Source of the DNA: an uncultured virus (IMG/VR IMGVR_UViG_3300037067_016575)
Lineage: Duplodnaviria; Heunggongvirae; Uroviricota; Caudoviricetes
Reading direction: 5' to 3' (one strand)
IMG/VR virus record: IMGVR_UViG_3300037067_016575
DNA: 64,000 nucleotides
In this document: positions 19,875 to 64,000 of the stretch, one piece after another
How positions within the stretch are numbered: the stretch's first letter is position 1
How the letters are laid out: each line of letters opens with the position of its first letter
Notes under the pieces: generated by a model
Told to the model about the DNA's origin: nothing
Databases searched by the model: none
What the model saw: the letters and a program-made list of their open reading frames with translations, nothing else
Made by a program: the position numbers and the translations under genes

Positions 19875-21260
19875 GTGAACTACCCCGCCGTAAACGGCGT
19901 GGCTTCCTGAGAGTGTACTGGAATGTCCAGACCTGTTTTTCTCAGATTATCGGTGAAGTGCCGATAGCCAGTCCACATGGCATTCGACGATAGGAACCGT
20001 ACCATGATATTGACCGCTGAATTACAGTCTCGATCTAAGTCGTTTCCACAATCGCATTTCATAACACGATCTTTGACGGTCATATCTGTATGAATTTTTC
20101 CACACTTACAGCACGTCTTGCTCGTGTTTCGTTCACTAATTTCTATTACTTTCTTACCTCTCATCGCTGCTTTATAGGTTAGAAATCCCGTGAACCTCGC
20201 AAGGTATCCGGTTCCTTGCGTTGACCTGTTCATCCCTCTCTTCGCTTTCTTCGACATCCCTTTCTGGGGTTTCGACTGCGGCATACTCTTCACATCAAGA
20301 TCACCGACTATTATTGTGTTAGCCTTTGTGTTCTCAACGATCATCTTCGAGGTCTTATGCTGGAAATCCTTAATCTGGTTACTCCGTTTTCTCTCGAATT
20401 TCCGTTTGATATTGTTCAAGTGTACCCATTGCCGACTGCTCGGCCGGCAATTCGTTTTCGTATGTTTTATACAACGATCTCTACGGCTCGTGATCTTGTC
20501 AATCGTTTTGTTCCAATACAAGTCCGGCCTCGCATTGTATACCTCAAAAAACTTCCCCGCTGTATTCACAGCCGTCTGTTTTGTGATGCCTAAATCAAAC
20601 GCCTGATACAACCCGTTGTCGTGATATTCCGGTGGCGTTATCTCGTCCACTATCGACAGATACCATTTTCCTTCATTGTAGTGGATTTCAACCTGTTTCA
20701 CATCCGTGAACTTCGCATACGGTGTTATCGAAAACGCGAGGTCTGCCCCTCCCTTGACCTTATGCGATAGGGTTACTTCTTCGTTGGTTACCTTGAACCC
20801 ACACTGGTTATATTTCATCGTGAAGAAATATTTCCTACCCCGAAATCCCGGAGGTCGTGCTTCCGGATCTACTTTTATCAGCGCGAAAAACGATTTGTAG
20901 TTCGCATCCAGCGTCTTCAACGACATCTGCAAGACTTTACTATTGACCTGCTTATATTCCGGATACTGATCTTTTATATTAGGTAATTTGTTCTGCTGAT
21001 CTACATACGATACCGATTTCTGTTCCCGTTCCCATCTCTCCTGCCGCTCAGCTAACGCAAAGTTATATATTAACCGACACCGGTTAGATAATACCCATAA
21101 GGTATCTTCCTGTTCCTCTGTCGGGTATATCCTGACCTTCCTCGTTAACTGCATTCTTATACTCAGTCCACCATTCCGTTTATATTCTTTCTGTTAGTTC
21201 CGGGAATATTATATCGCATTCATCCCCACCTTGAACAATGGGGAATTCTGCTCGCACATG
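19875..21260 (-). mobile_element. complete IS605/IS1341-type tnpB-only element (copy 2)
   Basis: TTTAA target at 21261-21265; left-end hairpin; right-end hairpin CGCCGTTTACGGCG followed by GGGTAGTTCAC; no tnpA inside. Confidence 0.9.
19880..21154 (-). CDS. tnpB: TnpB RNA-guided endonuclease
   Basis: N-terminal RIYPT HTH, RuvC-I AFDLG, Zn finger CCKCG..CDCG, RuvC-III DRDCNSAVNI. Confidence 0.95.
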   Translation of the reverse strand: MQLTRKVRIYPTEEQEDTLWVLSNRCRLIYNFALAERQERWEREQKSVSYVDQQNKLPNIKDQYPEYKQVNSKVLQMSLKTLDANYKSFFALIKVDPEARPPGFRGRKYFFTMKYNQCGFKVTNEEVTLSHKVKGGADLAFSITPYAKFTDVKQVEIHYNEGKWYLSIVDEITPPEYHDNGLYQAFDLGITKQTAVNTAGKFFEVYNARPDLYWNKTIDKITSRRDRCIKHTKTNCRPSSRQWVHLNNIKRKFERKRSNQIKDFQHKTSKMIVENTKANTIIVGDLDVKSMPQSKPQKGMSKKAKRGMNRSTQGTGYLARFTGFLTYKAAMRGKKVIEISERNTSKTCCKCGKIHTDMTVKDRVMKCDCGNDLDRDCNSAVNIMVRFLSSNAMWTGYRHFTDNLRKTGLDIPVHSQEATPFTAG

Positions 21261-21424
21261 TTAAATTCAATTATTTCCATGAATGTTTCATCATATTCCG
21301 GCATAACAAATGTGAATGCGATCCACCCAAGGACTAGGCGTTTCATGGTTTCGCCGTTGCCGAAGTAAAATCCACCGTATTTTCCGATGCTAAAAACAAC
21401 ACTGAAACTCATTTTGTGTTCCAC
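21209..21424 (-). CDS. small protein whose 3' end is replaced by the IS left end
   Basis: Reading frame enters the IS at GAA TTT AA|C. Confidence 0.65.
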   Translation of the reverse strand: MEHKMSFSVVFSIGKYGGFYFGNGETMKRLVLGWIAFTFVMPEYDETFMEIIEFNMCEQNSPLFKVGMNAI

Positions 21425-22536: not shown

Positions 22537-23280
22537 TCATCCTTTCGAGATCATTAACACTACATTTCGTTCACTTAATACGTCTGCGTTTCTATCAGGG
22601 ATTGTTATGATATCTCCTTTTGAGATCGCATATTCTTTACCATCGATCCCCATGAATGTATCAATATCGGTTAACGCCCTGACCAACGAGTATTTTTGTA
22701 CTTGTTGTTCCATAACAGATTTCTGTTCTGGTAGTGTTGCAGGCGTTCCTTCCCGTTTTGCATCGGGGGTTAAACTCTCTGCTTCTTCAACCCCGGGTGA
22801 TGTTCCTGCGGGTTCTGTTGGGGGGGGTTCGTCTACATCTCCGTCTGGTTGTGTTACGATCTCGGATTCCGGCTTGTGTGAAACCGATGTATTGAACGCT
22901 GCGGTTGGGCTGCATCCGATACAAGACCTTAAACATAACTCAATGTTTGCCGTAATAGATTCATACATCATCTTCTCGGCAGGAGTCATATTTTTTAGTT
23001 CGTTGTGGTCATTGATGTTGTTTATTCCGTGAGATGATGCTAATGATATAATTTTTCTTGCTCGTGTTTCGAAAATATCTTTTGAAGTCTCTCTTACAGA
23101 GAACACTTCGTTGAAAATATCACGGGCTTCGTCGCATAGCTGGTTATCGTATGATAATACGATCCTCATTATGCGATCTTCTTCTTCCTTCCCTTTTTCG
23201 TATAAATCCGGTGGGATCTGGGTAAGTTTTCCGTTGTTTCTTTCATCTAGCAGAATACTTCGCAGATCGTCCAGTTTCAT
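22537..23280 (-). CDS. archaeal GINS subunit (Gins51/Gins15-like), replication factor
   Basis: Helical A domain (ER..KL..IP.DLY, R.RKII.LA, MT.AEK.MY), disordered linker, beta B domain (FMGIDGKEY.I.KGDIITIP..NA.VL). Confidence 0.8.
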   Translation of the reverse strand: MKLDDLRSILLDERNNGKLTQIPPDLYEKGKEEEDRIMRIVLSYDNQLCDEARDIFNEVFSVRETSKDIFETRARKIISLASSHGINNINDHNELKNMTPAEKMMYESITANIELCLRSCIGCSPTAAFNTSVSHKPESEIVTQPDGDVDEPPPTEPAGTSPGVEEAESLTPDAKREGTPATLPEQKSVMEQQVQKYSLVRALTDIDTFMGIDGKEYAISKGDIITIPDRNADVLSERNVVLMISKG

Positions 23281-24239: not shown

Positions 24240-25121
24240 TTACAGTCGGATTATCCGGTCTTTGTAAAGATTATATGCAGAACCGGGATTACGGCAGTTG
24301 TGTTTCTGGCATTGCTCTTTGACATGTCTTCCGATAACGGGCATGGCGATAACTTCGTCTTTAAACTTTTCTTCTCCGAGTTCAAAGAGGGCTTTTTCAA
24401 TTGCACCCGTAATTTCTGATTCCGGAAGTTCGGGTAACTGGTCTTTCGGATCTTTCGGTGAACGTATCTTCGGAAGGACTGTTTTTTCTTTGACCATATT
24501 AACGAATGTGCCGTTCTCGTTTGATATCCAGATTTTTCCGACAACCCCTTCGTATTTGTATTCTTTGCATCTGGCGATTAGTAAATCTCTCGTAGCCAAA
24601 ATCTCTTCAAGACTGGTGGCTGTTTGAACCATCATGAGTTCGGCACAAGGGATTTCATAATTAATACAATATTCCTGTAATACGCCATAAGTAACAAAGG
24701 GCGGGGTCGTGTTTTCATCTGATAGATAAAGGTCGAATGCCACAAACTGGTTTTCGTCCCTGATCTCAATTAATTTTGGGGATTTGCCTTTACGGATAAA
24801 CTCCCCGAAAAGAACGGCACGAACACCGGGGATCTGCTCGTGGAATCGTAAGAGTCTTTTAATATTTGCTGCACAGGGAAGTGCAAGGAATTTCTGCCGT
24901 TCGGATTCCTCGATCTTGTTCATTTCACGAGTCCGAACCTGCAACTCTCCTTCGTCGTCCAGATAACAACCTACGTTCTCTCCATCATACTTTCTTTGCC
25001 AGTATATCGGAGTACCGAATAATTTATCATTAATAGTTAAACCTTCGGTTTTATCCATATGATAATCGGCAATACATCCGAAACTGTGATATTTGATTTC
25101 ACTTATTGGAGTTTTTGTCAT
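24240..25121 (-). CDS. ATP-dependent RNA ligase-like nucleotidyltransferase
   Basis: Motif I KYDGEN, III LFGEF, IIIa FVAFDL, IV EGVVGK, V VKEK. Confidence 0.75.
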   Translation of the reverse strand: MTKTPISEIKYHSFGCIADYHMDKTEGLTINDKLFGTPIYWQRKYDGENVGCYLDDEGELQVRTREMNKIEESERQKFLALPCAANIKRLLRFHEQIPGVRAVLFGEFIRKGKSPKLIEIRDENQFVAFDLYLSDENTTPPFVTYGVLQEYCINYEIPCAELMMVQTATSLEEILATRDLLIARCKEYKYEGVVGKIWISNENGTFVNMVKEKTVLPKIRSPKDPKDQLPELPESEITGAIEKALFELGEEKFKDEVIAMPVIGRHVKEQCQKHNCRNPGSAYNLYKDRIIRL

Positions 25122-29179: not shown

Positions 29180-29654
29180 TGTTCTCATCCCTTTGAACGA
29201 TTTCGATGTGTTCAAACCGATTAAATTTCTTTACAGGTTTTCGCTCCGTCGTCGGTTTTGGTGGGTCATCGGTTGACGGTTCATCGCCCATCTGGATAAA
29301 AGACTGAGATAACTGATATAACAGTTCATCCACAGCTTCCATTGCTATCCTTTCTGGTTCTCCTTGAGGGTTTGCTCCGGGATAAATTTCCCAATACGGG
29401 CGATTCCACGCCCCAATAAGTCCGTAACAGTCGAGGTATACGGAGATTGTATGTTCTCCTTTTTTTACTACGAACCTCACTACTGCACAACCGAACGGAG
29501 GGATGGGTTGGATTTCCCATCCTGCCGGGATAGGGATATATGGGATCTGCCCCATCCACTTTTCGGATTCAAAAGCAACGTCGTGCTCTGCGGAAGCACG
29601 CGCTCGTTTTAGGAACATGTCCGTTCGTTCCCTTAATTCATCCCTTACTGACAC
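29136..29654 (-). CDS. hypothetical protein with RF tag (NRFEHIEIV)
   Basis: ORF track; tag. Confidence 0.75.
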   Translation of the reverse strand: MSVRDELRERTDMFLKRARASAEHDVAFESEKWMGQIPYIPIPAGWEIQPIPPFGCAVVRFVVKKGEHTISVYLDCYGLIGAWNRPYWEIYPGANPQGEPERIAMEAVDELLYQLSQSFIQMGDEPSTDDPPKPTTERKPVKKFNRFEHIEIVQRDENNDEISTGGQPDQTS

Positions 29655-29677
29655 GATATCCCTCTTTGCTTTTTTTA

Positions 29678-30230
29678 CAATGTAGGCTGGGAATTGAACC
29701 CATCACGGCATAACGGCAATTACGCCTACCCATTCACCCTCTTGGCCTAGAGGGTTACAACATTGGGTGTTCACCATAGAACAACCATGACCGTTTGATA
29801 GATATTGTTAGAGTCAAACCCCTACAATATCATTAGGTCATTTTGTTACGTACTACATAACATCTATATGCGCTATTATGACGTAACACATAATATTCAA
29901 CGCTTTTTTAAATCCTAAACATACATACTATGACGATAATCTTACATAACAACTACACGCCTGTTCTTCACGATACAACCGGTGCAGGAGATCAATCCTG
30001 CGACACTGTAACTTCGGGATTTATCAAACCTCTGCCTCTAATATGGCATCATACGGTTGACCCGCGTTATTTACTTTTGTTTTCTTAGGTTAGCGATTAC
30101 TCGCCCGTGTAGCGACACTACAGGTGGCAACGTTTCGAAATACCGTTTTAATGGCTCTAATAGTCTGCCAGCCCCGTCATTGTGTTTTCTTCCGGAGAGG
30201 GATATTATTCCCCGTCCATCATAGATGAAT
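29678..30230 (-). ncRNA. candidate large structured ncRNA (~550 nt) ending in a tRNA-like T-arm/acceptor module
   Basis: Longest ORF-free stretch; many hairpins, a GNRA loop, and a 3' TGGG-TTCAATT-CCCA arm. Confidence 0.5.
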
Positions 30231-31012
30231 TTTTTACTTTTTTACATCATTATTTTTCGAATCTCAATATCCTCTGGGGTGAGATCGTATCTATAATAGA
30301 GATACGCGATCATTTCAAAGGTTTCCATTTCAGTTAATGAAGGGGTAAGTGGCGGATCGCCCTTATCAGCATGTCTATGATAAATGACAAAATCCCGCAT
30401 ATTTTCACTCTACCAGTTTAACCAACTTTTTATCGTTTCTTCTACGTACACCATTCGGATGTTTTCGTTTCAGGATCTTTACAAGTTGGAAATCACGACC
30501 CCCACAGCAGACATATTCAAAAGAATAACGATACTTCTCTGTATCGTATTCAAAACTGATCTCCATTCCGACGTTATTAGAACAATCATGCCCCGTGGGA
30601 TCTTCAAACTCCTCAATGAGTTTTCCGATTTTTAATAATAGTTCGTTACGTCGGGCTTTTTCTTTTATACCTAATTCAGATAAAAAATCTGTTTCCTCCA
30701 TAAAGAGACTTCCAAATCGGTTTTTATCCGGAACGATTTTTTTGCTATCTGAATTGAGGTTTATTTTACTGCAATCTTTGTTCTGGCACACTAAAATATC
30801 TTCCCACCCCGATGAAGTATAACGGGTCGCACCAAGGCAACGCCCTCCGCATGAGGGGCATCTTCGATCCGTATCCCGAAGTGTGCAACAAACGCTCGTT
30901 CCAGCCCCGGGAAGTAACTTCACAAAATTACACCGTGAACAGACGGAATACATTTCGTGGGTAAGTTTTTGGGGGCATCCAAGTTGTTGGATCAAGGTTA
31001 AGGCACCCATAA

Positions 31013-31654
31013 TTAATCATCTTCGTATTCAAAACTTTTCTTGTCGATTTCGCTTGTCCACCCGTTTTTCTTTAACCATCCTGAAACTGTTTTGAGTGGT
31101 GGGGTTGACGTGCATTGGTCATCGACATTAAACAAATCTTCCTTAAGATGGATATGATATAAAAAGTTCTCACCGTTTTTAAGGTCTTCTTTGATTTTAT
31201 CCTCAAATTGATCCGTTGGGAGATCTTTGAGATTGAAGTCCTCAATTTTTTTAATTAATCCCTGATTAATGAGTTCTATCGTTCCATTAATCTGGATCAT
31301 CATAACCGAATCGTTGTGTGTTGACCGGTTAAATACAATGCACGGGTCTTCTGCCAGAATTGATGACTTTCCGAACGTAAAATAATCCGAATAACATAGA
31401 ACACTGCGATTGATAAAATCCATGAGAACTACACCATATCCACTATTTGTGATTGTATGAAGTAGTTTTGACTGCGGCCATTCGTTTCCTTCTTTGGCTT
31501 CATTAATAAATTTATAGAATTCTTTCCCTTGATTTAAAAAAGAGGGTTGCATACATCGCCACGGCATATCATTTGTCCAGCGATTTATAAGGACTTCTTT
31601 TACGTCGCCACGTTCATCTTTAAACCTGATCCCTACGAAGATATCTCCACCCAT
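31013..31654 (-). CDS. paralog family A member 1
   Basis: MGGDIFVGIRFKD..RWTNDMPW..MQP.FL.QGKE. Confidence 0.8.
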   Translation of the reverse strand: MGGDIFVGIRFKDERGDVKEVLINRWTNDMPWRCMQPSFLNQGKEFYKFINEAKEGNEWPQSKLLHTITNSGYGVVLMDFINRSVLCYSDYFTFGKSSILAEDPCIVFNRSTHNDSVMMIQINGTIELINQGLIKKIEDFNLKDLPTDQFEDKIKEDLKNGENFLYHIHLKEDLFNVDDQCTSTPPLKTVSGWLKKNGWTSEIDKKSFEYEDD

Positions 31655-31656
31655 GA

Positions 31657-32283
31657 TTAATCATCTCTGAAACTTACCTTGTCGATCTTGCTTTTCCACC
31701 CGTTTTTCTTTAACCACGCATGTGTTTCTTTTATTGTTGGTGTTTGTTCCCCTCTGGGGGCATCAATATTGAATATTCCGTCTGAGAGTATAATATCATA
31801 TAAAAATGGGTTTTTATTTTGGATTTGATCGTTAACATCATCTACGAAATCAATAGGTAAGATATTGAGTCGGCACCAACCCTCAGCATACCGGGATATA
31901 TCCCTTTCAATTGATTGAACCCATCCTTTTTTGACAAGATCCGCTGTACTTTCTAATATTTCCTGCGCTGCTGAACTAACTGATGTAACACTAAGGTGAC
32001 CCGGAGTAAAATAGTGGTTTCTTGAGAAGATTTCGTGATTTATAAAATCAATCAAGACAATTCCATACTCGCTTCTATCGATCTTGTCAATTAGTTTTGA
32101 CTGCGGCCATTCGTTTCCGGGTTTGGCTTCGGCGATAAACTTTTTAAATTCCTTGCCCTGATCCAAGAAGGTTGGTTGCATTAATCGCCACGGCATATCA
32201 TTTGTCCATCTATCCATGAGGACTTCTTTTATTTCTCCCTTCTTGTCTTTGTATCTGACACCCACAAAAATATTTCCGCCCAT
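31657..32283 (-). CDS. paralog family A member 2
   Basis: MGGNIFVGVRYKD..RWTNDMPW; start trimmed to match paralogs. Confidence 0.8.
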   Translation of the reverse strand: MGGNIFVGVRYKDKKGEIKEVLMDRWTNDMPWRLMQPTFLDQGKEFKKFIAEAKPGNEWPQSKLIDKIDRSEYGIVLIDFINHEIFSRNHYFTPGHLSVTSVSSAAQEILESTADLVKKGWVQSIERDISRYAEGWCRLNILPIDFVDDVNDQIQNKNPFLYDIILSDGIFNIDAPRGEQTPTIKETHAWLKKNGWKSKIDKVSFRDD

Positions 32284-33276
32284 GATTACACCAACGGATC
32301 GAAAGTCAGTTTCCTTAACACCCGGTCTTTCGGAACAATTTTTCCGGGGAACGGGTTGAATTCGCAAGTCTCACAGCAGAAACTAGTCTGATCCGGGTTT
32401 TTGCACTCTGCCAGACAGGTTGCTACTTGTCCATCCTTATCATCGATAAAACATACTAACCTTGACATGATATCACTCCTTATTTTTGAACTTGGTACAA
32501 TTCGTGTGCCGCATTTATCGCAGTCGTAGTTCCTTCCTTGAATGCCAGATAAAACGCATCTGGTTTCTCTTCTGCGCATTTTAAACAAATTGGTTTCGTG
32601 CACGCGGGATGCCGTAAAACCAGATAATCGTTGACCCTTGCTTTACCTGTAATAGATAAGTCGGTGTGACAGATACGACAGTAATGTTCCGGTGTCTCGC
32701 GGTTAATAATTGCATCGTGAGAGCACAGAGAGATGTTGATATCATCCGTTTTTCCGATATGTAAACGGAAGAACGTATCCCAAAATAATGGATCTTGAAT
32801 TGGCGCTCCGTCCTTACAAGCACGTACATAATGAGAAAACTCTTCCGGCGTAAAGTTTACGCCGTCTTCTGTAGTGCATTCATCAAATAGATATTTGTGA
32901 TATTTCTCTTTAAGACTCGGAACTTTTGTTTTTATTGTCATATTACAACCTACCTCTCTCTGAATTCTTTTCAATCGGTCTGACCCAATTAAAAGATTTA
33001 CACTTCCAAACAACCACGGTTTGCAGTTGGCCTGCTGGGGGGTTTCTTGTAATCCGATGATGCATATGCAATGTTGAAACCGTGTTTTGTTCCTATAAAC
33101 CGATCCGTTTTGACTTGATCTATGTGTAGGATTCGAATTCCTTTATATACACCAAAAAGAGTGACATAAAATTTTTAATAAATTATTATGAATTTTTAAT
33201 GATTCTGCATATGCAACTCTGGGATTCCCAGTTGTGCTTGCAATGGGCACAATGGGCAGCACATATGTTCTGCTGA

Positions 33277-36740: not shown

Positions 36741-36921
36741 AATTTACCCCTATGCTGAAAACCAACCGATTACAATAAAAATTATCCCGAGAAATACCCC
36801 CACAATAAGTTTAAAGTGTTGACTGTAGATCGTAGTTACTTCTATTGTTAATCCCGTAGAGCACGTTAAAATTGCACCTGCTATCATTAACTCTCCATTC
36901 ATAAATTTCACCTCGTAATTT

Positions 36922-36960
36922 TTAATTACTTAATTAATTATAGGATAATTAAGTAATTAA
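36922..36960. repeat. AT-rich palindromic intergenic element
   Basis: ttaattacttaatta-N9-taattaagtaattaa. Confidence 0.7.
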
Positions 36961-37229
36961 ACCAAATCGATCTCGGCAAACCGATTGAATTTTTTCTTTT
37001 CTGCGGGTTTCGGTAATTTCGCCCGTTTTTTTATACCCGGTTTAAAGTTAGAGTGAGTTATCGTATATTCTTTTTCGTAATCGCTACCTTCACCTGCACA
37101 ATACATACATACGGCACAACATGGGTGAGCGGGAGTTTGATGAGGGGGGCGATACTGATTGCATACGTTATGCGAAAGTGCACCTGCAATATCGCCAATT
37201 TCAGCATGAGTAAGAAAACAATACCACAT
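36957..37229 (-). CDS. WYC..CxxC family protein with terminal RF tag (NRFAEIDLV*)
   Basis: Similar to 42852-43181 and 54088-54459. Confidence 0.7.
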   Translation of the reverse strand: MWYCFLTHAEIGDIAGALSHNVCNQYRPPHQTPAHPCCAVCMYCAGEGSDYEKEYTITHSNFKPGIKKRAKLPKPAEKKKFNRFAEIDLV

Positions 37230-41568: not shown

Positions 41569-41581
41569 AAAATCACCCCAT

Positions 41582-41619
41582 TAATTACTTAATTACTTCT
41601 GTAATTAATTAAGTAATTA
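41582..41619. repeat. AT-rich palindromic intergenic element
   Basis: taattacttaatta-N10-taattaagtaatta. Confidence 0.7.
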
Positions 41620-41940
41620 GATTAAATCAATATCGGCAAACCGATTGAACGGTTCTTTAGGAATCAGATTATGCCCGTGAAGGATTTCTCCCCCATCAAT
41701 AAAATTCGTTCTGGATATTTTAACAACAACGTGTCCTTTATTAAATGGGACGTGTATCCAAAATGTTCCGGACACCGCTTCACAACCGCACTGTGTTTGA
41801 CGACATGCCACGAACAGATCCTCAAGATCGCCTTTTTTGTCCCATTTGATATCTTTTTGATTTGCGCAATTTTTATGATATCGCTGGATTGCATCCATTA
41901 CTGGTTGCGGAACACGGAATTTTTGCATATGTATCACCAA
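41617..41940 (-). CDS. hypothetical protein with terminal RF tag (NRFADIDLI*)
   Basis: ORF track; tag. Confidence 0.7.
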   Translation of the reverse strand: MVIHMQKFRVPQPVMDAIQRYHKNCANQKDIKWDKKGDLEDLFVACRQTQCGCEAVSGTFWIHVPFNKGHVVVKISRTNFIDGGEILHGHNLIPKEPFNRFADIDLI

Positions 41941-46459: not shown

Positions 46460-46567
46460 TGCGCCGGAGGGGATTTGAACCCCCGACCAACGGATTTCTT
46501 CCGGGCTAATATGACCCATTGCTGCCCGTTAAAAGTCCGCCGCTCTACCTGACTGAGCCACCGGCGC
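46460..46567 (-). tRNA. tRNA-Lys(UUU) with canonical 37/38 intron
   Basis: GCGCCGG/CCGGCGC-A; GCGGA-CT TTT A-[intron CGGGC..GCCCG]-TCCGT; GGGG-TTCAAAT-CCCC. Confidence 0.9.
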
Positions 46568-46587
46568 ACAAAATATATTTCTCCGTG

Positions 46588-46798
46588 TGAGGTTAACAAT
46601 ATGCCGTGATAGACACCTGTATTGCAGGCTTATACGGATACCTGCAAGTGACTCTATGGTGAACGGGGTAGCCCATAGAACGCTCTACCCGAACATAAGC
46701 AATCCACACAATCCGGAAAATACGGCGATTTCGTATCTTGGTTGCCGCCACCTCATCAGTCTGACGCCCTGCGCGACATCACCACATTATTTAACCTC
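46588..46798 (-). ncRNA. candidate ~210-nt closed, pseudoknotted ncRNA
   Basis: Terminal helix GAGGTTAA/TTAACCTC; internal hairpins TCTATGG/CCATAGA and TTGCAGG/CCTGCAA. Confidence 0.5.
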
Positions 46799-46822
46799 TG
46801 TGCGGATGTTGGGGAAGAGGTA

Positions 46823-46898: not shown

Positions 46899-46973
46899 TG
46901 CTCCATAACAGATTTGAACTGTTGTCTCATGTTGTCACCATGAGAGATAACAATGTATGTTATCCGATGGAGC
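46899..46973 (-). tRNA. atypical tRNA-like gene, loop GTGACAA (GAC, Val-like)
   Basis: GCTCCAT/ATGGAGC-A and perfect T-arm, but 7-bp D-stem and 6-7-bp anticodon stem. Confidence 0.5.
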
Positions 46974-46975
46974 GA

Positions 46976-47125
46976 TGTGGTGCGTTGGATTTGAACCAAC
47001 CATTTGCCGCATTATCTAGAATACTCGGCAAACTATCTTCTACTTCCCTTATATCAGTAACGGTTCCGGCACAGGTGCGACCCGTGGCGCTTGTCGTTTC
47101 ATATAAAGGTGTCAAGTAACACCAC
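46976..47125 (-). ncRNA. 150-nt tRNA-like RNA with enlarged arms
   Basis: GTGGTGT/GCACCAC-A; GTTGG-TTCAAAT-CCAAC; long internal hairpins. Confidence 0.55.
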
Positions 47126-47150
47126 GCAAGTTCACCAGATTTTTAGTTTG

Positions 47151-47428
47151 TCTCTCTGGCGGGAGATGCAGACCGTTTACATATCTGGAAATTACCACAT
47201 ACGCCCGAATCTTCTAAACCAGACATCGGTTCGGGATTGTTCCCCATACTGGACAGGGCAAAAGGCGATTCAACGAACAAATCCACCTTTACCAGACCTT
47301 CATCTTTATCTCTCTGGTGGGAGATGCATGCCTTTGTTTCGTTTCCCGGTCAAGCGCACTTATCCGGCTACGTTTCGAACCTTCCGTTGCCAGACATCGG
47401 TTCAAACAACCCCTCACTGGATAGGGTA
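47151..47428 (-). ncRNA. two tandem copies of a ~110-120-nt structured RNA motif
   Basis: Shared blocks CCCT.TCCAGT..GGG, GAACCGATGTCTGG and TGCATCTCCC.CCAGAGAGA. Confidence 0.55.
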
Positions 47429-48056: not shown

Positions 48057-48069
48057 GGTTATTCTAACT

Positions 48070-48108
48070 TTAATTATTTAATTACTCTGTAATTAATTAA
48101 ATAATTAA
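48070..48108. repeat. AT-rich palindromic intergenic element
   Basis: ttaattatttaatta-N9-taattaaataattaa. Confidence 0.7.
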
Positions 48109-49191
48109 AAAATTTATTGGTTTTTAGTATCAACAAGTCCGGCGTTATTCAGTTCTCTACACGCCTTTGTGTAGGAGTTATAAAACACCTTGTTGATGAT
48201 TTCTTCTTTGTCACAATATGATTGCGACGATGGGTTTATTGACGGGTTATCAATTTTCATTACGGCCAGTTTTTCACCGTCACGCACAAACCGCTCAATT
48301 GTCACCGTAAAGGAATCTTTTGACTGCATGTTATTACTCCGCTGACGTTGGTTCATCTCTCTTGTAATTTTTTGATTTCAATATTTAGTTCTTTTTTCAA
48401 TTCTGTCGCGGCCTTGATTATATTATCAAGATATTCATCTCCTTTGTGCATCTCTTTTAGGAGTGATTTTTTGTTGTGTTGTGAGAGTTTTTGGATTGGC
48501 TCCGTCTTATACCATCCCAATACGGTAAATGCTCTCATCGGAAAGAAAATGTCGTGTTCAATGCTCCAAAGTTTCTGTTGGATCATTTCACCGCGTTTCT
48601 TTCCGTATGCTTTCTGACAGTAATTCAGAACCGCCCCATGCCAATCGATCATAGTTTACCCTCCTTTTCTCATTTACGTTCTTCTTATTCGGTCTCAAAT
48701 TCAATCCCTTCGCAGAATGCGGGAGGAGTGAATTCTACTTCCATTGTGGGATATTTTTTACCTTTTTTAAGACGCAAATGCCACCGCTCCTTAAGGTAAT
48801 CTTCCCATGAAATCCCGCCGGGAATGATTTTAATTTCGCCCTGATGACCTTCATCAAAGATCTTCCCCTCGAATAGTTCTGCAATCGCATTGAGAATTTC
48901 GGCGTCAACCCACCAGATCAAAGAGCTCCCTCCCCCTCCCTTGTGCTCGGTCTCAATTGTGTGGTTATCGACATCATCACTTTTAGTCATTGTGTAGAAT
49001 CGTGAACCGTAGAGATTGGGGTTGTCTTTATGGTTGACTCTCCACCCATATCCTTCTCCATCCCATCCAGTTCCAGCCTGAATAATAAACTGGTTTTTGA
49101 ATTTTGATTCATTAAGTTGATTTAAGAGTGCCGTTATTTCGGTAGGTATGATCTCTTTTTTGGTTTCAACCCATCCAATGTTTGCCATAGT

Positions 49192-49770
49192 TCACCTTCG
49201 TGTGATGTGCTGCTCTAACATGCGCCCTGCATTGCGAATCGGGAGGTATTCACGATAGTAAATGTGAGTGCTGAATTTTGCTCGTAATTCAAAACACCAA
49301 TTTGCCGGGTCGTCGTGTGGCTCACAGTAATGCCCCGGGGCATAATTTCGAATATAGGGAATCGCATCGTCTCCGAGATGTTTTTGGGTTATTCTACGGT
49401 ACCGTGTCGTTATTTCGTTCCACCTTTTTTCAGAGGTGTATGTGCTTGTACCAGTAATATTAATACTGAGTTCTGCACCCGTTGGTTTTTGCCAGACGTA
49501 AATCTCCCCAAATGGTGGAACGTGAGATGGTCGTGCACGATCCGTGTAATTTACATATGCATCTTGCGAGACCGGATCGTTTTTTATTTCTTCAAATAAA
49601 GGTTGAAACTCTGATAAGAAATCGCGGATTTCCTGAATTGTTTTTATGTAATCCCACGGTTTCCTAATCCCTAATGTTTTCAATTCGTCAAGGCGTGTTC
49701 TTCTGGTGGTATCAATGATTACGATACCTCCATAATTGATCGTTGTGTTCGGGTCGTTTGATCCTGCCAT
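49192..49770 (-). CDS. hypothetical protein, weak similarity to 50704-51183
   Basis: G(I/L)RKP(W/Y).YI shared; start trimmed to after the repeat. Confidence 0.65.
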   Translation of the reverse strand: MAGSNDPNTTINYGGIVIIDTTRRTRLDELKTLGIRKPWDYIKTIQEIRDFLSEFQPLFEEIKNDPVSQDAYVNYTDRARPSHVPPFGEIYVWQKPTGAELSINITGTSTYTSEKRWNEITTRYRRITQKHLGDDAIPYIRNYAPGHYCEPHDDPANWCFELRAKFSTHIYYREYLPIRNAGRMLEQHITRR

Positions 49771-49872
49771 GATTCCACCTCGTGAAATTTGTATAACGTC
49801 GATATACGACGAATTCAACTGCTCCTCTTGGAAATACCTTGTTTCCCGGAACGAACCGGAAAAAAGTTAAAT

Positions 49873-50604
49873 TTAATGAAGGACATTTAATGAGGGAAAC
49901 GTTCCCGACGGCGCAAGATCTGGCTCGTTCCTCAGTAACCTGTCGAGTGTTGTTACTGACCCATCACCACGGACTGCGTAAATTTCTTCACTCTTCTTGT
50001 TTTTCTTCTTTTTCTTCGCCTCTTTCTTTTGTCGTTTTTCCTCGCGCACTGTGAACGACTCATTAGGGTTCTCCCCGTGGCCTTCGGTTACAGATGATAC
50101 TCTCCCTTCATCATTTTTTCTGAATATTACCATTGAGAGTTTTTCACGCTTTCTGATAACAATGAGTATAACATGTTCTTTTGTTTCGGTCACTATGAAG
50201 TCTTTTGAGTCCTCAAAAGCATACCTTACGAATTCTTTAAAACCTGTGGTTTTATCCTCAGTCACGTCATCCCCGACGATATCCCATAGAGAGGTTGTGG
50301 ATTCTGTGTTTGCTAGAGTGGTAAATGTGCAGATTGAGTTAACTGTTTTGTGTGTAGTTAATGTAAATTTAACTTCGTTTGCGTTAAGTGCACTAGGATT
50401 ATACACACTATACGTAACACTTTTTTTACCAGTTCTTACTATTGGATATGGGGTGATTGGGGGAATGTTGTTATCTTTGCACTCCTTACAGCACATCGAA
50501 CTATTTTGAGTGAAACAGAAAAAATCTGCTTTGTTTTTTTTACAGTAATCGCAGATAATATCTTCGTCAAATGTGACATTATCATACCTTGTTATTGAAA
50601 ACAT
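49873..50604 (-). CDS. Zn-finger protein with shared C-terminal module
   Basis: CDYC..C..CCKEC; ends EIYAVRGDGSVTTLDRLLRNEPDLAP. Confidence 0.7.
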   Translation of the reverse strand: MFSITRYDNVTFDEDIICDYCKKNKADFFCFTQNSSMCCKECKDNNIPPITPYPIVRTGKKSVTYSVYNPSALNANEVKFTLTTHKTVNSICTFTTLANTESTTSLWDIVGDDVTEDKTTGFKEFVRYAFEDSKDFIVTETKEHVILIVIRKREKLSMVIFRKNDEGRVSSVTEGHGENPNESFTVREEKRQKKEAKKKKKNKKSEEIYAVRGDGSVTTLDRLLRNEPDLAPSGTFPSLNVLH

Positions 50605-52017
50605 TAATCTCACCTCTAAAATCAGTATAACGTCGATATACGACGAATTCAACTGCTCCTCTTGGAAATACCTTGTTTCCCGGAACGTGAACCGGAAAAA
50701 AGGTTAGAGATTTTTCATCTCTTCATACATGATATAACCGTGCCAGCGGATTTGTGTGTCAAACCCTTTCTCTTTGAAGTTAAGAGGAATGTAGAATAGT
50801 TTTGCGTCCGTCCCAAGAAACTCAAAAAGTTCGGCCTGTATTTTGTCGGCAGTGCTTTCCCATTCTGTTTCCGTAATCCCTGATTTCGGCATAAGAAAAA
50901 TTGTTAGGTTGGTTCCCCGAGATAATGCTTTTTGAGTGATACTTCCCTCCGATCTAAAGGGCCACGGTTTATTTACGTTTATGTTATACGCCTTGACTAT
51001 ATCTCGCATTACTTTGATAAATTTTTTAGTCCTCTCAGCCGGGGCAATATATTCATACGGTTTGCGTAAACCGGCGATGTTTTTACGGCGTACTTCAATG
51101 TGTGACATTTCCTCTATTCCCCCTCCGATATGAGTGAGATCTATTGGACGTTTAATGATGAAATCTTCCACATTGCATTTCATTATTTTACCCCCTGTAT
51201 TTTTTGTTTTCCTTCGGTGTTCTCCGGTGGCTTTTTGCTTTCCCTTCTTCAATATTTAGGATCTCGTCGATTGTGTCCCTTAATGCAAGAAGTTCCTCTC
51301 TTGAGTTTAAAGTGATCTCTGATACTGGAATACAATCAAAATCTAACCTATGAACTGCTTTATTATGTGGTTCAAAAAACATAAGGATATATTTTTCGTC
51401 TTTTGTACGAATTTGCATGTTTTCACCTCGTAAATTTTAGTTTCCCCTACTACACTAATTCCTTTATTTTCCGGAATGTGAACCGGAAAAAAAGATTAAA
51501 GGTGTCCGTCGCTCATGAAGTTCATGCACAGGCATTTTGTGATGTGTGTAAGATACATCAGTTCATACTTTGCGCGTTTCCCACTGACGGCCTTTTTCAT
51601 TTCATCGGAGATTTCCCGAAACTTTGTTTCATTCTCGGTCAACATCTCGGGATATCCGAATGTTATTGTGTACTGCTTTAGAGCGTCAAGAACCGCCTTT
51701 GCGTCGCTATTGGCGTCAATTTCGTCCATTAGAGCGAATGTCTCAATACATGTGCTTGCGACCACAGGAACGTCTTTTCTGACTTTGAGATAATCTTCCG
51801 TAAACAGTGCAAGGATCTTCTCTGCAAACTGTTTCCCGGTAATCTCATGTATTTCCTTTGCGCGTTCGATTGATATACGATAGTTATACGCCTGTAAGAC
51901 GTGTATCCCCTCGTTTATCATTTCGGGTTTCCATTCAAATAACGGTTTGGGTAATTTTGCCATAATTGTTCTCCTTTTGAATGCCTTAATTTTCCGGAAC
52001 GTGAACCGAAAAAAAGG

Positions 52018-52734
52018 TTAAATGTTTAGTGTCGGGCCTGTTCCCGGTGGCGCAAGATCTGGCTCGTTCCTCAGTAACCTGTCGAGTGTTGTTACTGACC
52101 CATCACCACGGACTGCGTAAATTTCTCTATCTTCTTCGCATTCTTTCGCTTTTTTCTTTGCTTCTTTTTCCCGAATTTGTTTTTCTGTGAGATACAAGTT
52201 ATTTACTTTTTGAGAAATTAACCCCCCCAACTTATTGTTGTCAAATTTATCATAGAGTATAGTGGTTACCTGATTGCCTTTTTGGAATACAGTTAGGATA
52301 TAAAAATTCTTTGATTCTGTTAACCCATATTCCTTATATCCCTCAAAGTTTACATCAAGGTATTCTTCTAAGGTAAACATTTTAACTTCTGTTGAGGGGG
52401 ATGTGAGGGTTAAGCTAACATTACCTTCAATCATTTTATTATTTATCATCCGAGCACTATAGATATATGTAAATCCTCTCCGATATTCTTTTATTGCACG
52501 ATCTGGATCGATTTTCCATAATACTTGGAATCCGCCATTTGGATATCGAAATCCTCTGTTATCGGAGATCAGATCAACCCGTAATTTTTGCATGTCTTTC
52601 TTTGAAAAAGCATAGTAGTGTTTTCCCGGAATTTCATCATATAGTTTTGGGGTTACACCTACTTGCCTAAAATATGCAAGAGCTTTTTCTTCTTCTTTTG
52701 TTTGATAACTTAAATCAAATTTTACACCGAGCAT
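52018..52734 (-). CDS. hypothetical protein with shared C-terminal module
   Basis: Ends EIYAVRGDGSVTTLDRLLRNEPDLAP. Confidence 0.7.
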   Translation of the reverse strand: MLGVKFDLSYQTKEEEKALAYFRQVGVTPKLYDEIPGKHYYAFSKKDMQKLRVDLISDNRGFRYPNGGFQVLWKIDPDRAIKEYRRGFTYIYSARMINNKMIEGNVSLTLTSPSTEVKMFTLEEYLDVNFEGYKEYGLTESKNFYILTVFQKGNQVTTILYDKFDNNKLGGLISQKVNNLYLTEKQIREKEAKKKAKECEEDREIYAVRGDGSVTTLDRLLRNEPDLAPPGTGPTLNI

Positions 52735-53712
52735 AATTTCACCTCTTAAAATACATATGCACATTTCTTTACAATAGGATATCTTGTTTCCCGGAACGTG
52801 AACCGGAAAAAAGGTTATAATAAATCAGAGGGATCAAATTCAAACCGCCCTTTATTCTTTAGTCCTTCTGATTTGTGTTCTTTCTTTGGTGCCGGATTCG
52901 GTTGTGTTGACTGCCCTGTGTTTGGGTTTGCCGGGGGTATTCCTGATGGAATGTGTACCCCAACTAACCCCTCCATTCCCATAACTGAAAAAACCGTTGG
53001 TTGTTCTACCGGCGCACTCTCCCACCTCTTTTGAAATTCTCTTTGGATCGCTGTTTCCATGCCTGCAAGAAAATCATCTGATTTCATATTTTGGGTGACG
53101 TGTTCTTCTGCCATTTTTTTATTGAACGTACGCGTGGCTATGTAATAACCTTGTTTCGTTTTGTTTACTGTTTCGTCGAGAGCTTTGACGACCCCATTAT
53201 GTCCAATGTCGTATCCTCTTTGCCATTCGGCTTTATCCTTATAATTCTCATTGATTGCCATTTTTCACCTCAAATTTTCGTATAACGTCGATATACGATA
53301 CTCCTGACATTCCGGAACGTGAACCGGAAAAAAGGTTAGTAATACTCGATCTCGCTTGTGGGTTGGGGTAATCTCGGCATTTTTTTGGGGATTACTCCCT
53401 TTTTGAATAATTTTTCGACTGCCGCCCATGCTACCCGTTCGTGTTCATGCCACGGATATTCGTCCGGAATTGTTTTTACATTTACAATAGTCTCTGCGAT
53501 CATCGTGGCGTCTTCGATAAACGCCTTATCGACGTTCATATACGTATTGCCGTCGATAGATGTGATTTTCCGTGTTTTCGGATTAATATTGAGTCCTGCC
53601 AGATTACTACCGTAAAGTCCGTTTGATAGTTCGGCGTAATAATCTTGGAGAATTGTTTTCCAAATCCTCACCTTGAATTTTGCCATAATTTCACCTCTGC
53701 ATATGTATTTAT

Positions 53713-54037
53713 AGATAAGGCAGCAAGAAAACCCCTGTTTTAAAACAGGGGATGAATTGCGTTAACCCAAACAAATAAATCTGGACTCATCAACCTATGG
53801 ATGACCATACAATGTTGAATTGTATGTGTGTTGTTCTCACAACAAGTTTGTGCGAACACAATGTAGCTGGCGACGCTCCTGTAAAGGAAATAGTCAGTAG
53901 TGGCCGTTTCAACCGACCTGTGAGAATAAGGCTGGCTTTCGAGCCGGCAAACTTCTCCAAAGTAATCCGAACGAGATGTGTTGTTCACCCGAACGACCTC
54001 ACGCTCAATCCTCCCGTTTTAACGGGGGGTAGTTGAA
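53713..54037 (+). mobile_element. non-autonomous IS200/IS605 derivative lacking tnpB (ends approximate)
   Basis: Left-end hairpin AGAAAACCCCTGTTTTAAAACAGGGGATGAAT and right end CCCGTTTTAACGGGGGGTAGTTGA resemble the ends of 19875-21260. Confidence 0.65.
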
Positions 54038-54087
54038 TTGTCAGGATGCAATACCAGATGGTCGGATTAAATAGTTCGGGCATTATT

Positions 54088-54459
54088 TCAATCCCCCATT
54101 ATAAAATCTATTTCGGCAAACCTTTTTTGCGCCCCGATTTTACACGTTTCCTTCTTCGGGGGCGGAGTTGAATTAATCTCGGTTTCTGTTATTATCTCTA
54201 TATGTTCAAACCGGTTCGGGGGTTTTGGTATGATAATCCCCTTTATCCACCCGGGATGTTTTTCCGCATACTCCTGTTCTTTAACACTGCCAACAAACGC
54301 ACAGTTAAAACAGGAGTCACAAACACCTCCCCGCCCTAGAGGTGTGTATATGTAATCCTTGCAGGTTGTTTTTCGGATTACTGTAAGACCGTATCCCATG
54401 TCTTTGTTTAAGATCATGCAATACCAGTGGGGATTGAATAATGAATCGCCGTATCCCAT
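54088..54459 (-). CDS. WYC..CxxC family protein with two RF tags
   Basis: NRFEHIEII and KRFAEIDFI. Confidence 0.7.
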   Translation of the reverse strand: MGYGDSLFNPHWYCMILNKDMGYGLTVIRKTTCKDYIYTPLGRGGVCDSCFNCAFVGSVKEQEYAEKHPGWIKGIIIPKPPNRFEHIEIITETEINSTPPPKKETCKIGAQKRFAEIDFIMGD

Positions 54460-54661
54460 AATCTAAAACCTCTATATTGCGTTTCTAATCGTGCCAGAAG
54501 GAATGACCCTACAAACACGTGATCCTCACCCATTTACGCGCCTGTCTGCGTAATACGCCCTTCTGAAAAGGGGAGAGGGGTTTAGGGTGAGGGGTTCTTT
54601 TCTCTTAAATGGAAGAGAAAAGAGGTATTCGGGGAGAAGAGGGGGAAACGTTCTCTTTTCA

Positions 54662-55462
54662 TCAGAACATATCCGCAACATCGATCCGGTCTGCGATCTT
54701 GGAACTGGTTTTGACAGGTTTACCCTTTTCGGGTCTGCCGTCCGGATGGAGTTCTGGAACCTCTGACTCATCAGCAGCTTTTGCGCCGCCATCTAAGTAA
54801 TCGATTTCGTTCTCCATTACAACGTCAACCGTCGAGAACCGGTCTTTTTCTTCGTCCAGAATTTCCATGATCTCTTTTTGGAGCGGAAGGATCTGGTCTG
54901 CCATGATCATATTCCGCATCTCTTCGATCCGGTGGTCGATCTGAACGTCTTCCGTTACATTGACCGTTTTAAGCCGATCCAGCATCTTAAGAAGTGCTCC
55001 CCGTGTGCGGGAAGTCATCTTATCCCCGTTTTTCTCAATGGTCTCGGAGATCTTCTTGAGTACCTTCTCGTGGATCTGGGTCTGGATCTGGGAGAGCATC
55101 TCTTCCATGAGGTTTTCAGTCTGCAAACCCGACATGGAGAGTGGGATGAAATGGATATCTGCCTTTAACGTCGGGTCAATCGCTTGCATCGAGAGATGTG
55201 CGTCTTGTACGACCTTTTCAAGCTGACCTTTCCCGATATCGTTAGTGATCCTCATCGTGTAAAACTTGGCGCATGTTCCCACGGCCATGTTTACCTGTTG
55301 CCTTACCACCCCGATCTGATTGCGCTGCTCTTTCTGGAAATGATAATACAATTTTTTGGAGTTCTCAGACTCGTTGATCTCGGTCTTATCCGTGAAATTC
55401 GGACTTGACATCTTGAGTTCAACGACGTAGAGTTGTCCTTTTGCTGTTGTTACTGCTGCCAT
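54662..55462 (-). CDS. helical protein of the AAA operon, RF tag (DRFSTVDVV)
   Basis: GGTGAGGT SD; co-oriented with the DUF2997-like gene. Confidence 0.75.
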   Translation of the reverse strand: MAAVTTAKGQLYVVELKMSSPNFTDKTEINESENSKKLYYHFQKEQRNQIGVVRQQVNMAVGTCAKFYTMRITNDIGKGQLEKVVQDAHLSMQAIDPTLKADIHFIPLSMSGLQTENLMEEMLSQIQTQIHEKVLKKISETIEKNGDKMTSRTRGALLKMLDRLKTVNVTEDVQIDHRIEEMRNMIMADQILPLQKEIMEILDEEKDRFSTVDVVMENEIDYLDGGAKAADESEVPELHPDGRPEKGKPVKTSSKIADRIDVADMF

Positions 55463-55523
55463 AAGTTTACCTCACCGATACAAGATTGTTTGGCAAAGAA
55501 AAGAGTTTTGAATTTCGCCGACC

Positions 55524-55742
55524 TTACCGGTGGACGAAAACTTCTGATCCCTTCTCTTCGAGGTAGGGCGTGTGGGCTTCCGCCATGAGATCCTGTTCCT
55601 TGACATTGGACTTGATCCCGTTGGATTCGAGATGCTTTCGGAGCTGCGCAAGGACTTCCGTGCATTTTGCACTCTTGAATCCTTCTGCGTGAACTTCGAG
55701 TTCCCCGCCATTCGAGATCCGGTATGTAATATTTTCTGACAT
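55524..55742 (-). CDS. DUF2997-like small protein
   Basis: ITYRISNGGELEVHAEGFKSAKC.E....L pattern; position after the DUF1257-like gene. Confidence 0.7.
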   Translation of the reverse strand: MSENITYRISNGGELEVHAEGFKSAKCTEVLAQLRKHLESNGIKSNVKEQDLMAEAHTPYLEEKGSEVFVHR

Positions 55743-55744
55743 AG

Positions 55745-56143
55745 TTAGAACCTCGTTGCGGTAATCAGGATCTTACCGTCCTTGTCCTTTGTTACCTGCT
55801 GCGTGAATCCCTGCTTCGTGTTGAAGTCCTTGATGACCGCCGCCTGATACTGATCCTGTACCATGTTGGTCACCTTGGCGAATTCCTTGTTGCACTGCCA
55901 CGGGTCGCCCTGCATCTCGTAGCTCTTCTTGTCCTCGGACTTGATAAACCTGAGATTACCCTGTTTCTGGTAACCATCAATCGGGGGATAGTTGACCTTG
56001 ATCATGGTCTTGTCGGGATTCATGGAGTAAGTGAACTTGACTTTCTCCGTTGAAAGCTCTTTCTGCATTGCTTTGAGTGCGTCTTCCAGCATCTTTGCGC
56101 TGGTTAACTCGCACTTTGTTTTGAGTGTCGTTATATGTGACAT
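55745..56143 (-). CDS. DUF1257 (Ycf35)-like protein
   Basis: MSHITTLKT...L..AL..M..GD.W......Q.Y.......GF; start trimmed. Confidence 0.7.
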   Translation of the reverse strand: MSHITTLKTKCELTSAKMLEDALKAMQKELSTEKVKFTYSMNPDKTMIKVNYPPIDGYQKQGNLRFIKSEDKKSYEMQGDPWQCNKEFAKVTNMVQDQYQAAVIKDFNTKQGFTQQVTKDKDGKILITATRF

Positions 56144-56229
56144 TCTTGTGATACCTCGTAAATATTGGGTGTTCGGACTTCGATACTGGATACCAACTTC
56201 CGGAACGAACCGGGAAAGTGGTTTGGATG

Positions 56230-56523
56230 TCACCCGCAATAATGCACAGAAACCTTACTAGGATTGATTCCGTTGGCTTTTAAATGTGCGATCAGTGCTT
56301 GGTCGTTCCCGGAACAAATAACCTCGCCATTCGAGATTATTACGTCCGTACGGGGTGACGGGTCAACCGGAACCACACTCAAATCCTCATGCCCTAGTGC
56401 CGTAAGGTTTGCTCCCGGCATAAAGGCAAGGGAAAAAAGAGGGTTGTGGTTAACCATATCCTCCCGGTGCCGCTCAGTCAATATCGCCGAGATCGGCTTT
56501 GCTGATTTCATCTTTAACGTCAT
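56230..56523 (-). CDS. hypothetical protein overlapping the AAA gene end
   Basis: ORF track. Confidence 0.55.
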   Translation of the reverse strand: MTLKMKSAKPISAILTERHREDMVNHNPLFSLAFMPGANLTALGHEDLSVVPVDPSPRTDVIISNGEVICSGNDQALIAHLKANGINPSKVSVHYCG

Positions 56524-58276: not shown

Positions 58277-59090
58277 ATTTGGTTAACCTCCCTCCATAGT
58301 ATAGGGATATTCGGACTTCTATACTGAATGCCACATTTCCCGGAACACGAACCGGAAAAAAGGGTTATGCAAACATCTCATTTTTTTAACTTATTGTAAT
58401 ACTTTGTCCAAAATGCAAGTGCTTCATTCGGATCGTTCCATCGGTGTTGTTTTATCCATGCGTATGACATGCCTGCTGGGTGAGGGGGTATATCCCAAAC
58501 ACCTTTTTTAGATAACTCCCAATAACCCTGATATACCCCGTCTATTAGGTGTGGCACCCCCTTCCGGATTGCCCATCTATTTTTTCCGGATATACTTGCG
58601 GTTATTAAAGTTATTTGTTGAGATTCCGGTAGGTTTTCAGATAAAAGAGGAATGATTTTCCACAGCGTCATGTGTTCACCCGTAAATAAGTTTTGAAAAC
58701 AGCGCGTATTGGAGGATTTTGTCTGCAATCCCGGCATCGATGTTTCCTGCATCAAGAGTGTTCTTTCCGTTTACATTGATTAAAGATACCTCGTTAGGCT
58801 GTGATTTCATCCAATCTTTTAATCCTTGTATGAGTCCTCGTTTGGAGAGAGTCAACCGAATGTTTTCATCGTCCGGATAGAATAAAATCGTTCCACCGTT
58901 GTTTATTGCTGACGAGGCCCATTCTGATAGTGACATTCCTGTTGGTTTTTTGTCATTAGGGTGTTTGATAATTATATGACCTATCCAATAGTTTGATCCA
59001 CCCTCCAACATTGTACAGATAATGTTGTCGAAAAACTCATCGTCGAGTTCGACTTCAACTTCCATGAAAACTGATTCTTTGACCATAATT

Positions 59091-63773: not shown

Positions 63774-64000
63774 GAGTTCACCTCGTTTTTTCGTATACCT
63801 TCGATATACGACGTGTTCAACCTCTCCTCTGAAACACCTCGTTCTCCGGAGCGCGAACCGGAAAAAAGGTTGGTTTTATTTTCCTCAATTATGGGATTTA
63901 GTACGTCTCAAACATGAGGTAGGGGCAACTTTCAGGCCCGTCAACCTCTGCATATACCCGCACTTTACGACCATCGGGAAGTTTTGCGAAGAGAACGTTG

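Follow-up and report, generated by a model that had tools for sequence, protein, structure and literature searches.

A tmRNA is about 360 nt long and is laid out as a tRNA-like frame, a long irregular helix, an A-rich linker and a short frame closed by tandem stops. In mascRNA and menRNA, an anticodon-less tRNA-like module ends a long RNA, and YrlA RNAs are about 100 nt in size. Models for ROOL and GOLLD are included in Rfam 15. These two are large ornate viral RNAs of bacteria whose function is described as open in the accessible parts of two reports (PMC5737381; PMC12286853). The same source parts give ROOL an average length of 581 nt, six junctions, three pseudoknots and a frequent location near tRNAs (PMC5737381), and describe RNA-only cages formed by ROOL and GOLLD (PMC12286853).

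A stretch of 64,000 nt from an uncultured virus of the Caudoviricetes (IMG/VR record IMGVR_UViG_3300037067_016575), here called the window, was analyzed for a comparable molecule. Within one ORF-free gap of this window lie nested helices between the two ends, a structured interior and, close to the 3' end, a T-arm set in tRNA register. The segment 29635-30231 is very probably a real structured RNA element, and modeling suggests that the locus probably encodes a large viral non-coding RNA outside known families. With a probability of roughly 0.45, our main reading of these models is that an archaeal-type virus makes a stable RNA, about 500 nt long and without a decoding role, which would be framed by tRNA-like parts and matured by tRNA enzymes. 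No description of such an RNA was found in a literature search that mainly covered the main texts of openly available papers.

An ORF-free gap whose two ends pair

The window is gene-dense (92% covered by ORFs) and nearly all genes lie on the minus strand. Its largest internal ORF-free gap measures 587 nt (29655-30241), the next one 204 nt, and the window edge (1-903) is the sole longer stretch free of ORFs. Stops occur 9-16 times per frame in all six frames of the gap, which bore out the ORF-free character noted in a preliminary description of this DNA. A 52-aa plus-strand ORF inside the gap was called as a gene on one recorded contig, and a homolog search with it found none. The GTG start of the downstream gene (29654) was supported by alignment with residue M21 of P0004, a protein 70% identical to the downstream one that carries a 20-residue N-terminal extension; an atlas search with the downstream protein itself returned no usable match. 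The sequence suggests that the RNA is probably co-transcribed with the upstream ORF, because this ORF ends so close to the rod (Table 1) and none of the nearby sequence makes a convincing TATA element. The TATA search around the RNA gave one weak match, at 30690, and a sigma-70 promoter scan of the locus is not applicable to an archaeal host.

The span originally put forward, 29678-30230, is indeed structured (folding z -3.36), but the unit is larger and includes outer stems that had been missed (29635-30231, z -4.86). Global folding by itself is modest evidence, because similar scores were obtained for 2 of 21 control windows (z <= -4.7; 10 shuffles each). The strongest signal at the locus is the end-to-end pairing, which the first reading had overlooked. 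On the minus strand, the end-to-end duplex reaches -75.2 kcal/mol compared with -40.3 ± 5.1 kcal/mol for shuffles. None of 500 shuffles and none of 1052 background pairs of the same spacing attained this value, for which the duplex boundaries were picked after the fold was known. An untuned scan took in 3675 pairs spanning 450-780 nt; no pair came to -75.2 kcal/mol, and the best one (-64.6 kcal/mol) was the same locus, narrowly ahead of an unrelated locus at -63.5 kcal/mol. The outer duplex accounts for -30.0 kcal/mol (shuffles -13.5 ± 2.9 kcal/mol; reached by none of 500). Six helices were found between the two ends, and the nested helices have pair probabilities of 0.94-0.99 in the free ensemble. 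As the z-score of the end duplex differs little between the strands (-6.5 for minus vs -5.5 for plus), the RNA was assigned to the minus strand from the T-arm and the gene direction.

Table 1. Positions of the predicted RNA elements and adjacent genes in the window (p, pair probability).
Feature	Position	Strand	Remarks
Complete folded unit (597 nt), putative precursor	29635..30231	minus	long irregular rod formed by pairing of the two ends
Outer stem, 5' strands	30196..30231 (30231-30223, 30216-30213, 30205-30196)	minus	p 0.94-0.98
Outer stem, 3' strands	29635..29665	minus	contain the downstream gene's purine-rich RBS, GTG start (29654) and first codons
Outer helix, 9 bp	30231-30223 with 29643-29635	minus	over first codons of downstream gene
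Outer helix	30216-30213 with 29653-29650	minus	free-ensemble fold
Outer helix, 10 bp, perfect	30205-30196 with 29665-29656	minus	over RBS of downstream gene
Core RNA, 507 nt	29677..30183	minus	closed by ACAAUG/CAUUGU, 30183-30178 with 29682-29677, p 0.98
5' acceptor-like strand GGGCUGG	30168..30174	minus	in model A pairs with 29690-29684 over 7 bp; in model C with 29687-29684 over 4 bp, next to the T-arm
Helix	30174-30168 with 29690-29684	minus	GGGCUGG/CCAGCCU, p 0.99 (free ensemble)
D-arm-position hairpin UGGC/GCCA, 11-nt loop without GG	30152..30170	minus	predicted; model C only, constrained fold
Helix, 7 bp	30146-30140 with 29711-29705	minus	p 0.97 (free ensemble)
Irregular helix, 21 bp (7+4+4+6 bp), 5' strand, anticodon-arm position	30120..30146	minus	first 7 bp in free ensemble, rest in constrained model only
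Irregular helix, 21 bp, 3' strand	29705..29733	minus	includes GTAGGC (29729-29724), the alternative partner in the preliminary description
Interior ornate domain, 383 nt	29736..30118	minus	z -3.28; 1 of 60 shuffles as good; middle part with competing registers
Interior hairpins	30105-30092, 30048-30033, 30001-29984, 29841-29787, 29783-29768, 29755-29736	minus	fold
A-rich linker	about 30086-30066	minus	interior domain
Candidate long-range pseudoknot, 8 bp	GUUUGAUA 30029-30022 with UAUCAAAC 29800-29793	minus	helix list, single sequence
Short start-less frame NAGQPYDAILEAEV with two tandem stops, after A-rich linker	30021..30068	minus	may be chance
T-arm TGGG-TTCAATT-CCCA	29688..29702 (read 29702-29688)	minus	4-bp stem plus A.G mismatch, loop UUCAAUU
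Downstream gene, 172 aa	29136..29654	minus	widespread family, function unassigned; start within outer stem
Upstream ORF, 52 aa	30242..30400	minus	stop 11 nt before the rod

The complements listed in the preliminary description all occur on the minus strand: GGCGA-GTAA-TCGCT (30105-30092), TGTAG/CTACA (30122-30108), GCAGGA/TCCTGC (30001-29984), ATGACC/GGTCAT (29841-29787) enclosing GATATTGT/ACAATATC (29831-29801), and ACCCTCT/AGAGGGT (29755-29736). For TGTTACGT/ACGTAACA (29888-29844) the complement is likewise present, but its pair probability is only 0.14 and several registers compete. For the suggested TTTGA/TCAAA pseudoknot, a geometric reading indicates that a 2-nt linker would have to cross a 12-bp stem; the 8-bp pairing of 30029-30022 with 29800-29793 is the more plausible pseudoknot candidate.

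The T-arm, its relatives and the competing folds

The pattern GGGTTCRANTCCC, which was written from the T-arm site and makes for a somewhat generous test, matches three sites in the window where 0.01 would be expected, and the two sites besides this one are tRNAs. A looser scan detected seven T-arms in the window, all on the minus strand. Six of them lie in the tRNA cluster, where each has a perfect 7-bp acceptor; the remaining one (29688-29702) is without a 7/7 acceptor partner within 700 nt. Its acceptor-like strand (66-72) reads CCUACAU and is bulged, the discriminator is U73 and the D-loop has no GG. Rfam matches at the locus were limited to this T-arm, which fits positions 348-362 of the tmRNA model (E 0.019). 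Of the tRNA-like 3' end that had been proposed, the T-arm stands, while the self-contained module is weak: the GTAGGC/GCCTAC module alone has a z-score of -0.91 and is equaled by 35 of 200 shuffles.

Three folds of the 3' strand were compared. Model A, a plain rod with the T-arm melted, has an energy of -153.6 kcal/mol. Model C is a tRNA-like frame with an acceptor-like stem formed by the far 5' end, a D-position hairpin, the 21-bp helix with the interior, and the T-arm; its energy of -143.6 kcal/mol falls 10 kcal/mol short of that of model A. Model B, in which the local module is forced, is the worst of the three (-139.1 kcal/mol). Model C was favored because the T-loop stands in tRNA register and is apparently conserved. 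According to these models, the acceptor-like 3' strand more likely pairs with the 5' end of the RNA about 490 nt away than with its local partner.

The apparent conservation derives from P0004, which is encoded on a 1.7-kb contig. When its residues 2-15 were back-translated, the best fit among 127,916 window positions was 29710 (8 mismatches in 42 nt; 11 for the runner-up). This match covers the T-arm and 3' strand and lies shortly before the orthologous ORF. The P0004 extension is most likely the RNA end of a relative that was read through by the gene caller, and this relative appears to keep the last 30-40 bases of the RNA, as judged from one back-translated protein. The implied base changes, which are minimum-change inferences from protein rather than DNA as observed, comprise A to G at T-loop position 57 and U to C at position 60, with the consensus kept, and at least two changes in the acceptor-like strand. 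The ACATTG after this strand would be kept and the RBS region beyond it would not. One of the two His codons allowed by the back-translation would give a full 5-bp T-stem. The implied loop changes fit model A also. Among 268 proteins, P0004 alone carries an extension that fits the end of the RNA, with 4 mismatches over 30 nt compared with 6 for the next seven proteins.

Searches for the RNA itself with blastn gave one 22-nt chance match among phages and no match among plasmids. Pattern searches of IMG/VR returned one locus with an unrelated T-arm, 44 loci of which none is homologous and most are ordinary tRNAs, and, in two further searches, at least 120 and 20 loci as chance matches. Related viruses sought via protein comprised three distant phage loci, all without the RNA; none was found via the ligase or the AAA protein, and none in genomes. 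The metagenome search recovered a single locus that is the same virus, with 1 mismatch in 6552 nt located outside the gap, and no variants within the gap were seen in the four DNA runs aligned (including X2, X3 and X5) or in locus L058.

Proposed maturation and rival explanations

According to our preferred reading, the RNA would be made within a minus-strand multi-gene transcript. Its ends would zip together, so that the T-arm and the strands from both ends make up a tRNA-like top half, and the 21-bp helix in the anticodon position would carry a multi-hairpin domain of about 385 nt that is probably pseudoknotted. Host RNase P, RNase Z and perhaps the CCA enzyme could recognize the top half, with cuts near 30180 and 29679 that would free an RNA of about 500 nt; on this model, maturation by tRNA enzymes is plausible. 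The outer stem would then be a precursor stem that hides the downstream RBS and GTG start until processing and thereby damps translation. By analogy with ROOL and GOLLD, a structural role as a self-assembling scaffold or the binding of host translation or defense proteins is most likely for the freed RNA, rather than decoding or use as a message. This tRNA-framed reading draws on the ORF-free gap, the end pairing with the recovery of the same locus as best of the untuned pairs, the T-arm statistics, the best fit of back-translated P0004 at this site with changes at T-loop 57 and 60 that keep the consensus, archaeal markers, and two further tRNA frames with perfect 7-bp acceptors in the same virus. 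Against it stand the energy deficit relative to model A, the poor acceptor (no 7/7 partner, a bulge, a U discriminator and no D-loop GG), the compatibility of the P0004 loop changes with model A as well, a relative inferred from one protein, the small strand asymmetry and the 2 of 21 control windows that fold comparably.

Somewhat unlikely, the locus could encode a real large non-coding RNA with a plain long terminal stem, in which the T-arm sequence is left over from an ancestral tRNA or serves as a tertiary T-loop motif, while tRNA enzymes take no part in maturation. Model A has the lowest energy, its GGGCUGG/CCAGCCU helix has a pair probability of 0.99 and a proper acceptor is missing; however, nearest-neighbor energies leave out the tertiary stability of the T-loop, and a 13-nt motif in tRNA register is apparently kept in the P0004 relative. 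That there is no functional RNA, and that the locus is a decayed tRNA, intron or mobile remnant or acts at the DNA level, for instance as an origin, appears unlikely. Even though some coding windows fold equally well and the evidence comes from a single virus, the end pairing exceeds all backgrounds and the 3' end is apparently conserved; moreover, the locus shows no GC-skew turn, AT-rich dip or repeat family beyond chance pairs, no group I or group II match and no bulge-helix-bulge (BHB) in its terminal stems. A mascRNA-like module of about 56 nt (29733-29679), with an RNase P cut before it making the 3' end of the upstream RNA, is decidedly improbable: the local strand does form 9 bp with a 2-nt bulge, and local pairs can win during transcription, but the module alone folds no better than z -0.91, gives the worst of the three energies and disrupts the end-to-end rod.

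The position of the outer stem raises the question of a cis-acting leader, a 600-nt fold that gates downstream translation by RBS masking in the manner of a riboswitch or attenuator. A perfect 10-bp helix over the RBS, a 9-bp helix over the first codons and a single 3' end contested by two strands would suit such a leader, whereas its very large size and a relative that conserves the T-arm end and not the RBS region make it very improbable. Extremely improbable is an analog of tmRNA, in which the tRNA-like frame and an internal tag frame (30068-30021) rescue or retag stalled archaeal ribosomes. The layout is tmRNA-like in its frame, helix of about 21 bp, A-rich linker and short frame with tandem stops. 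Terminal G1-C72, G3.U70 and A73, which are alanine identity elements, are all absent, ARAGORN and Rfam were negative except for the T-arm, no SmpB was found among the 66 window ORFs scanned, and the accessible part of one report describes the tmRNA system as not found in archaea (PMC4131195). If it were true, the function would exist in a domain of life without a reported tmRNA system.

Host and genomic surroundings

Pfam domains among the 66 ORFs scanned include GINS51-type domains (22537-23280) and an RNA ligase (24240-25121), as well as TnpB, an AAA ATPase and a radical SAM protein. The anticodon-loop insertion of tRNA-Lys(UUU) (46460-46567, minus), a gene missed by ARAGORN, reads as a canonical BHB intron. 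From the GINS51 domains and this intron-containing tRNA, the host looks archaeal. A methanogen host is a guess based on the landfill and groundwater DNA runs that contain the sequence, which is present in 5 DNA datasets of 4 studies, 4 of the 5 possibly being the window's own source; no RNA dataset is listed as containing it. The only match of the ligase in the phage collection was 26% identical and belongs to a Methanofastidiosa virus.

The RNA locus lies 16 kb from the tRNA cluster, with the nearest tRNA at 46460. Two elements on the minus strand of this region were missed by ARAGORN and Rfam. An uncalled tRNA frame (46976-47126, z -3.34) has a 7/7 acceptor and a 5-bp T-arm 125 nt apart with a long folded body, and an uncalled tRNA-like gene (46899-46971, z -3.83) has a 7/7 acceptor, a 5-bp T-arm, a long D-position hairpin without GG and a 7-nt loop that would read GAC. 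Directly after tRNA-Leu, a motif of about 90 nt occurs twice on the minus strand (about 47311-47402 and 47151-47233); the copies share their ends (GAACCGATGTCTGG ... TGCATCTCCCRCCAGAGAGA) and differ in the middle, have no Rfam match and are possibly a small ribozyme or processing element. A multi-hairpin stretch of about 240 nt between tRNAs (46575-46815, minus) has no Rfam match of note. AT-rich palindromic repeats, candidates for a promoter or operator, were seen in intergenic gaps at 36919-36989, 41581-41649 and 48069-48111, one of them just upstream of the tRNA cluster.

Elsewhere in the window, a peptide motif of the NRFAEIDLV type was found 35 times on the minus strand vs 3 times on the plus strand (range 942-54841; minus-strand examples at 7667, 28552, 36983, 43210 and 45835). 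Of the 35, 27 are located no more than 10 residues from a stop, after a Pro/Lys-rich linker on otherwise unrelated proteins and with varied codons, which suggests a docking or cargo tag common to these proteins; the exact motif occurs at 9 loci in IMG/VR, none a relative. Positions 1-717 and 20551-21267 are inverted copies of each other (90.7% identical), covering the tnpB 3' portion together with the flank that follows it. An intergenic repeat family of about 100 bp (49765-63880) precedes many genes in the manner of a promoter cassette, and paralogous ORFs are located at 31013-31654, 31657-32367 and about 60600-60890. Two coding windows on the minus strand fold unusually well (24500-25096, z -4.7; 54500-55096, z -6.4; 10 shuffles each). 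In the unrelated virus L001, an isolated T-arm with an acceptor-like strand and ACCA (about 45 nt; 1501-1540, minus) lies between two ORFs and received no ARAGORN call.

Comparison with known RNAs

If the tRNA-framed reading is true, an archaeal-virus example of about 500 nt would extend large ornate RNAs to a second domain of life and join them with tRNA-framed viral RNAs, and its maturation route would be testable in vitro. The outer stem predicts a coupling of RNA processing with translation of the next gene.

Several known identities were tried for the locus and rejected. A tRNA-Arg or tRNA-Ser with an anticodon-loop intron was discarded on account of a 26-nt D-region, U37 and the absence of a BHB or group I core. 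For an archaeal intron-containing tRNA, none of the best 25 BHB-like candidates lies at the frame junctions or the outer stem, and ARAGORN was negative. Rfam returned no group I or group II intron match at E<=10 and none for RNase P or SRP RNA. Resemblance of 29717-29696 to the group II D5 motif is confined to the 5' half. An origin was rejected as there is neither a GC-skew turn nor an AT-rich dip.

No region of the gap reached the Rfam gathering score, ARAGORN made no tRNA or tmRNA call there, and the ROOL and GOLLD models had no match at the locus even at E<=10. Placing the RNA in the ROOL/GOLLD size class, as first suggested, is supported by its size (507-597 nt), end pairing, structured interior and apparent 3'-end conservation, but the RNA is a member of neither family. 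ROOL (average 581 nt) is also virus-encoded; its multi-junction fold with pseudoknots may have a counterpart here, as judged from single-sequence folds. Its occurrence in bacteria and their phages, often beside tRNAs (PMC5737381; PMC12286853, accessible parts), differs from the archaeal-type setting here, 16 kb off the tRNAs, and the T-arm frame of this locus is not mentioned for ROOL in the parts of the literature consulted. GOLLD is likewise a large ornate viral RNA, yet it is bacterial, exceeds 800 nt in many cases and has tRNAs inside its linker rather than framing it (PMC12286853, accessible part); the locus is without a match to the GOLLD model, which holds the conserved 3' domain. Shared with tmRNA are a one-piece tRNA-like frame, a T-arm, a long helix where the anticodon arm would stand and the insertion of a large domain; at 500 nt and in an archaeal-type host, the present RNA differs in lacking the alanine identity elements and in its short, bulged acceptor. 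It resembles mascRNA and menRNA in the local module of model B and differs in having no Rfam match and a module no better than chance. No Ro60/Rsr domain was found among the 66 ORFs scanned, all neighbors included. As in YrlA, a non-decoding RNA carries a T-arm and its 5' and 3' ends form a long stem, whereas the permuted order of T, acceptor and D and the D-loop GG described for YrlA in the accessible part of 10.1101/312249 set that RNA apart from the tRNA-framed molecule proposed here.
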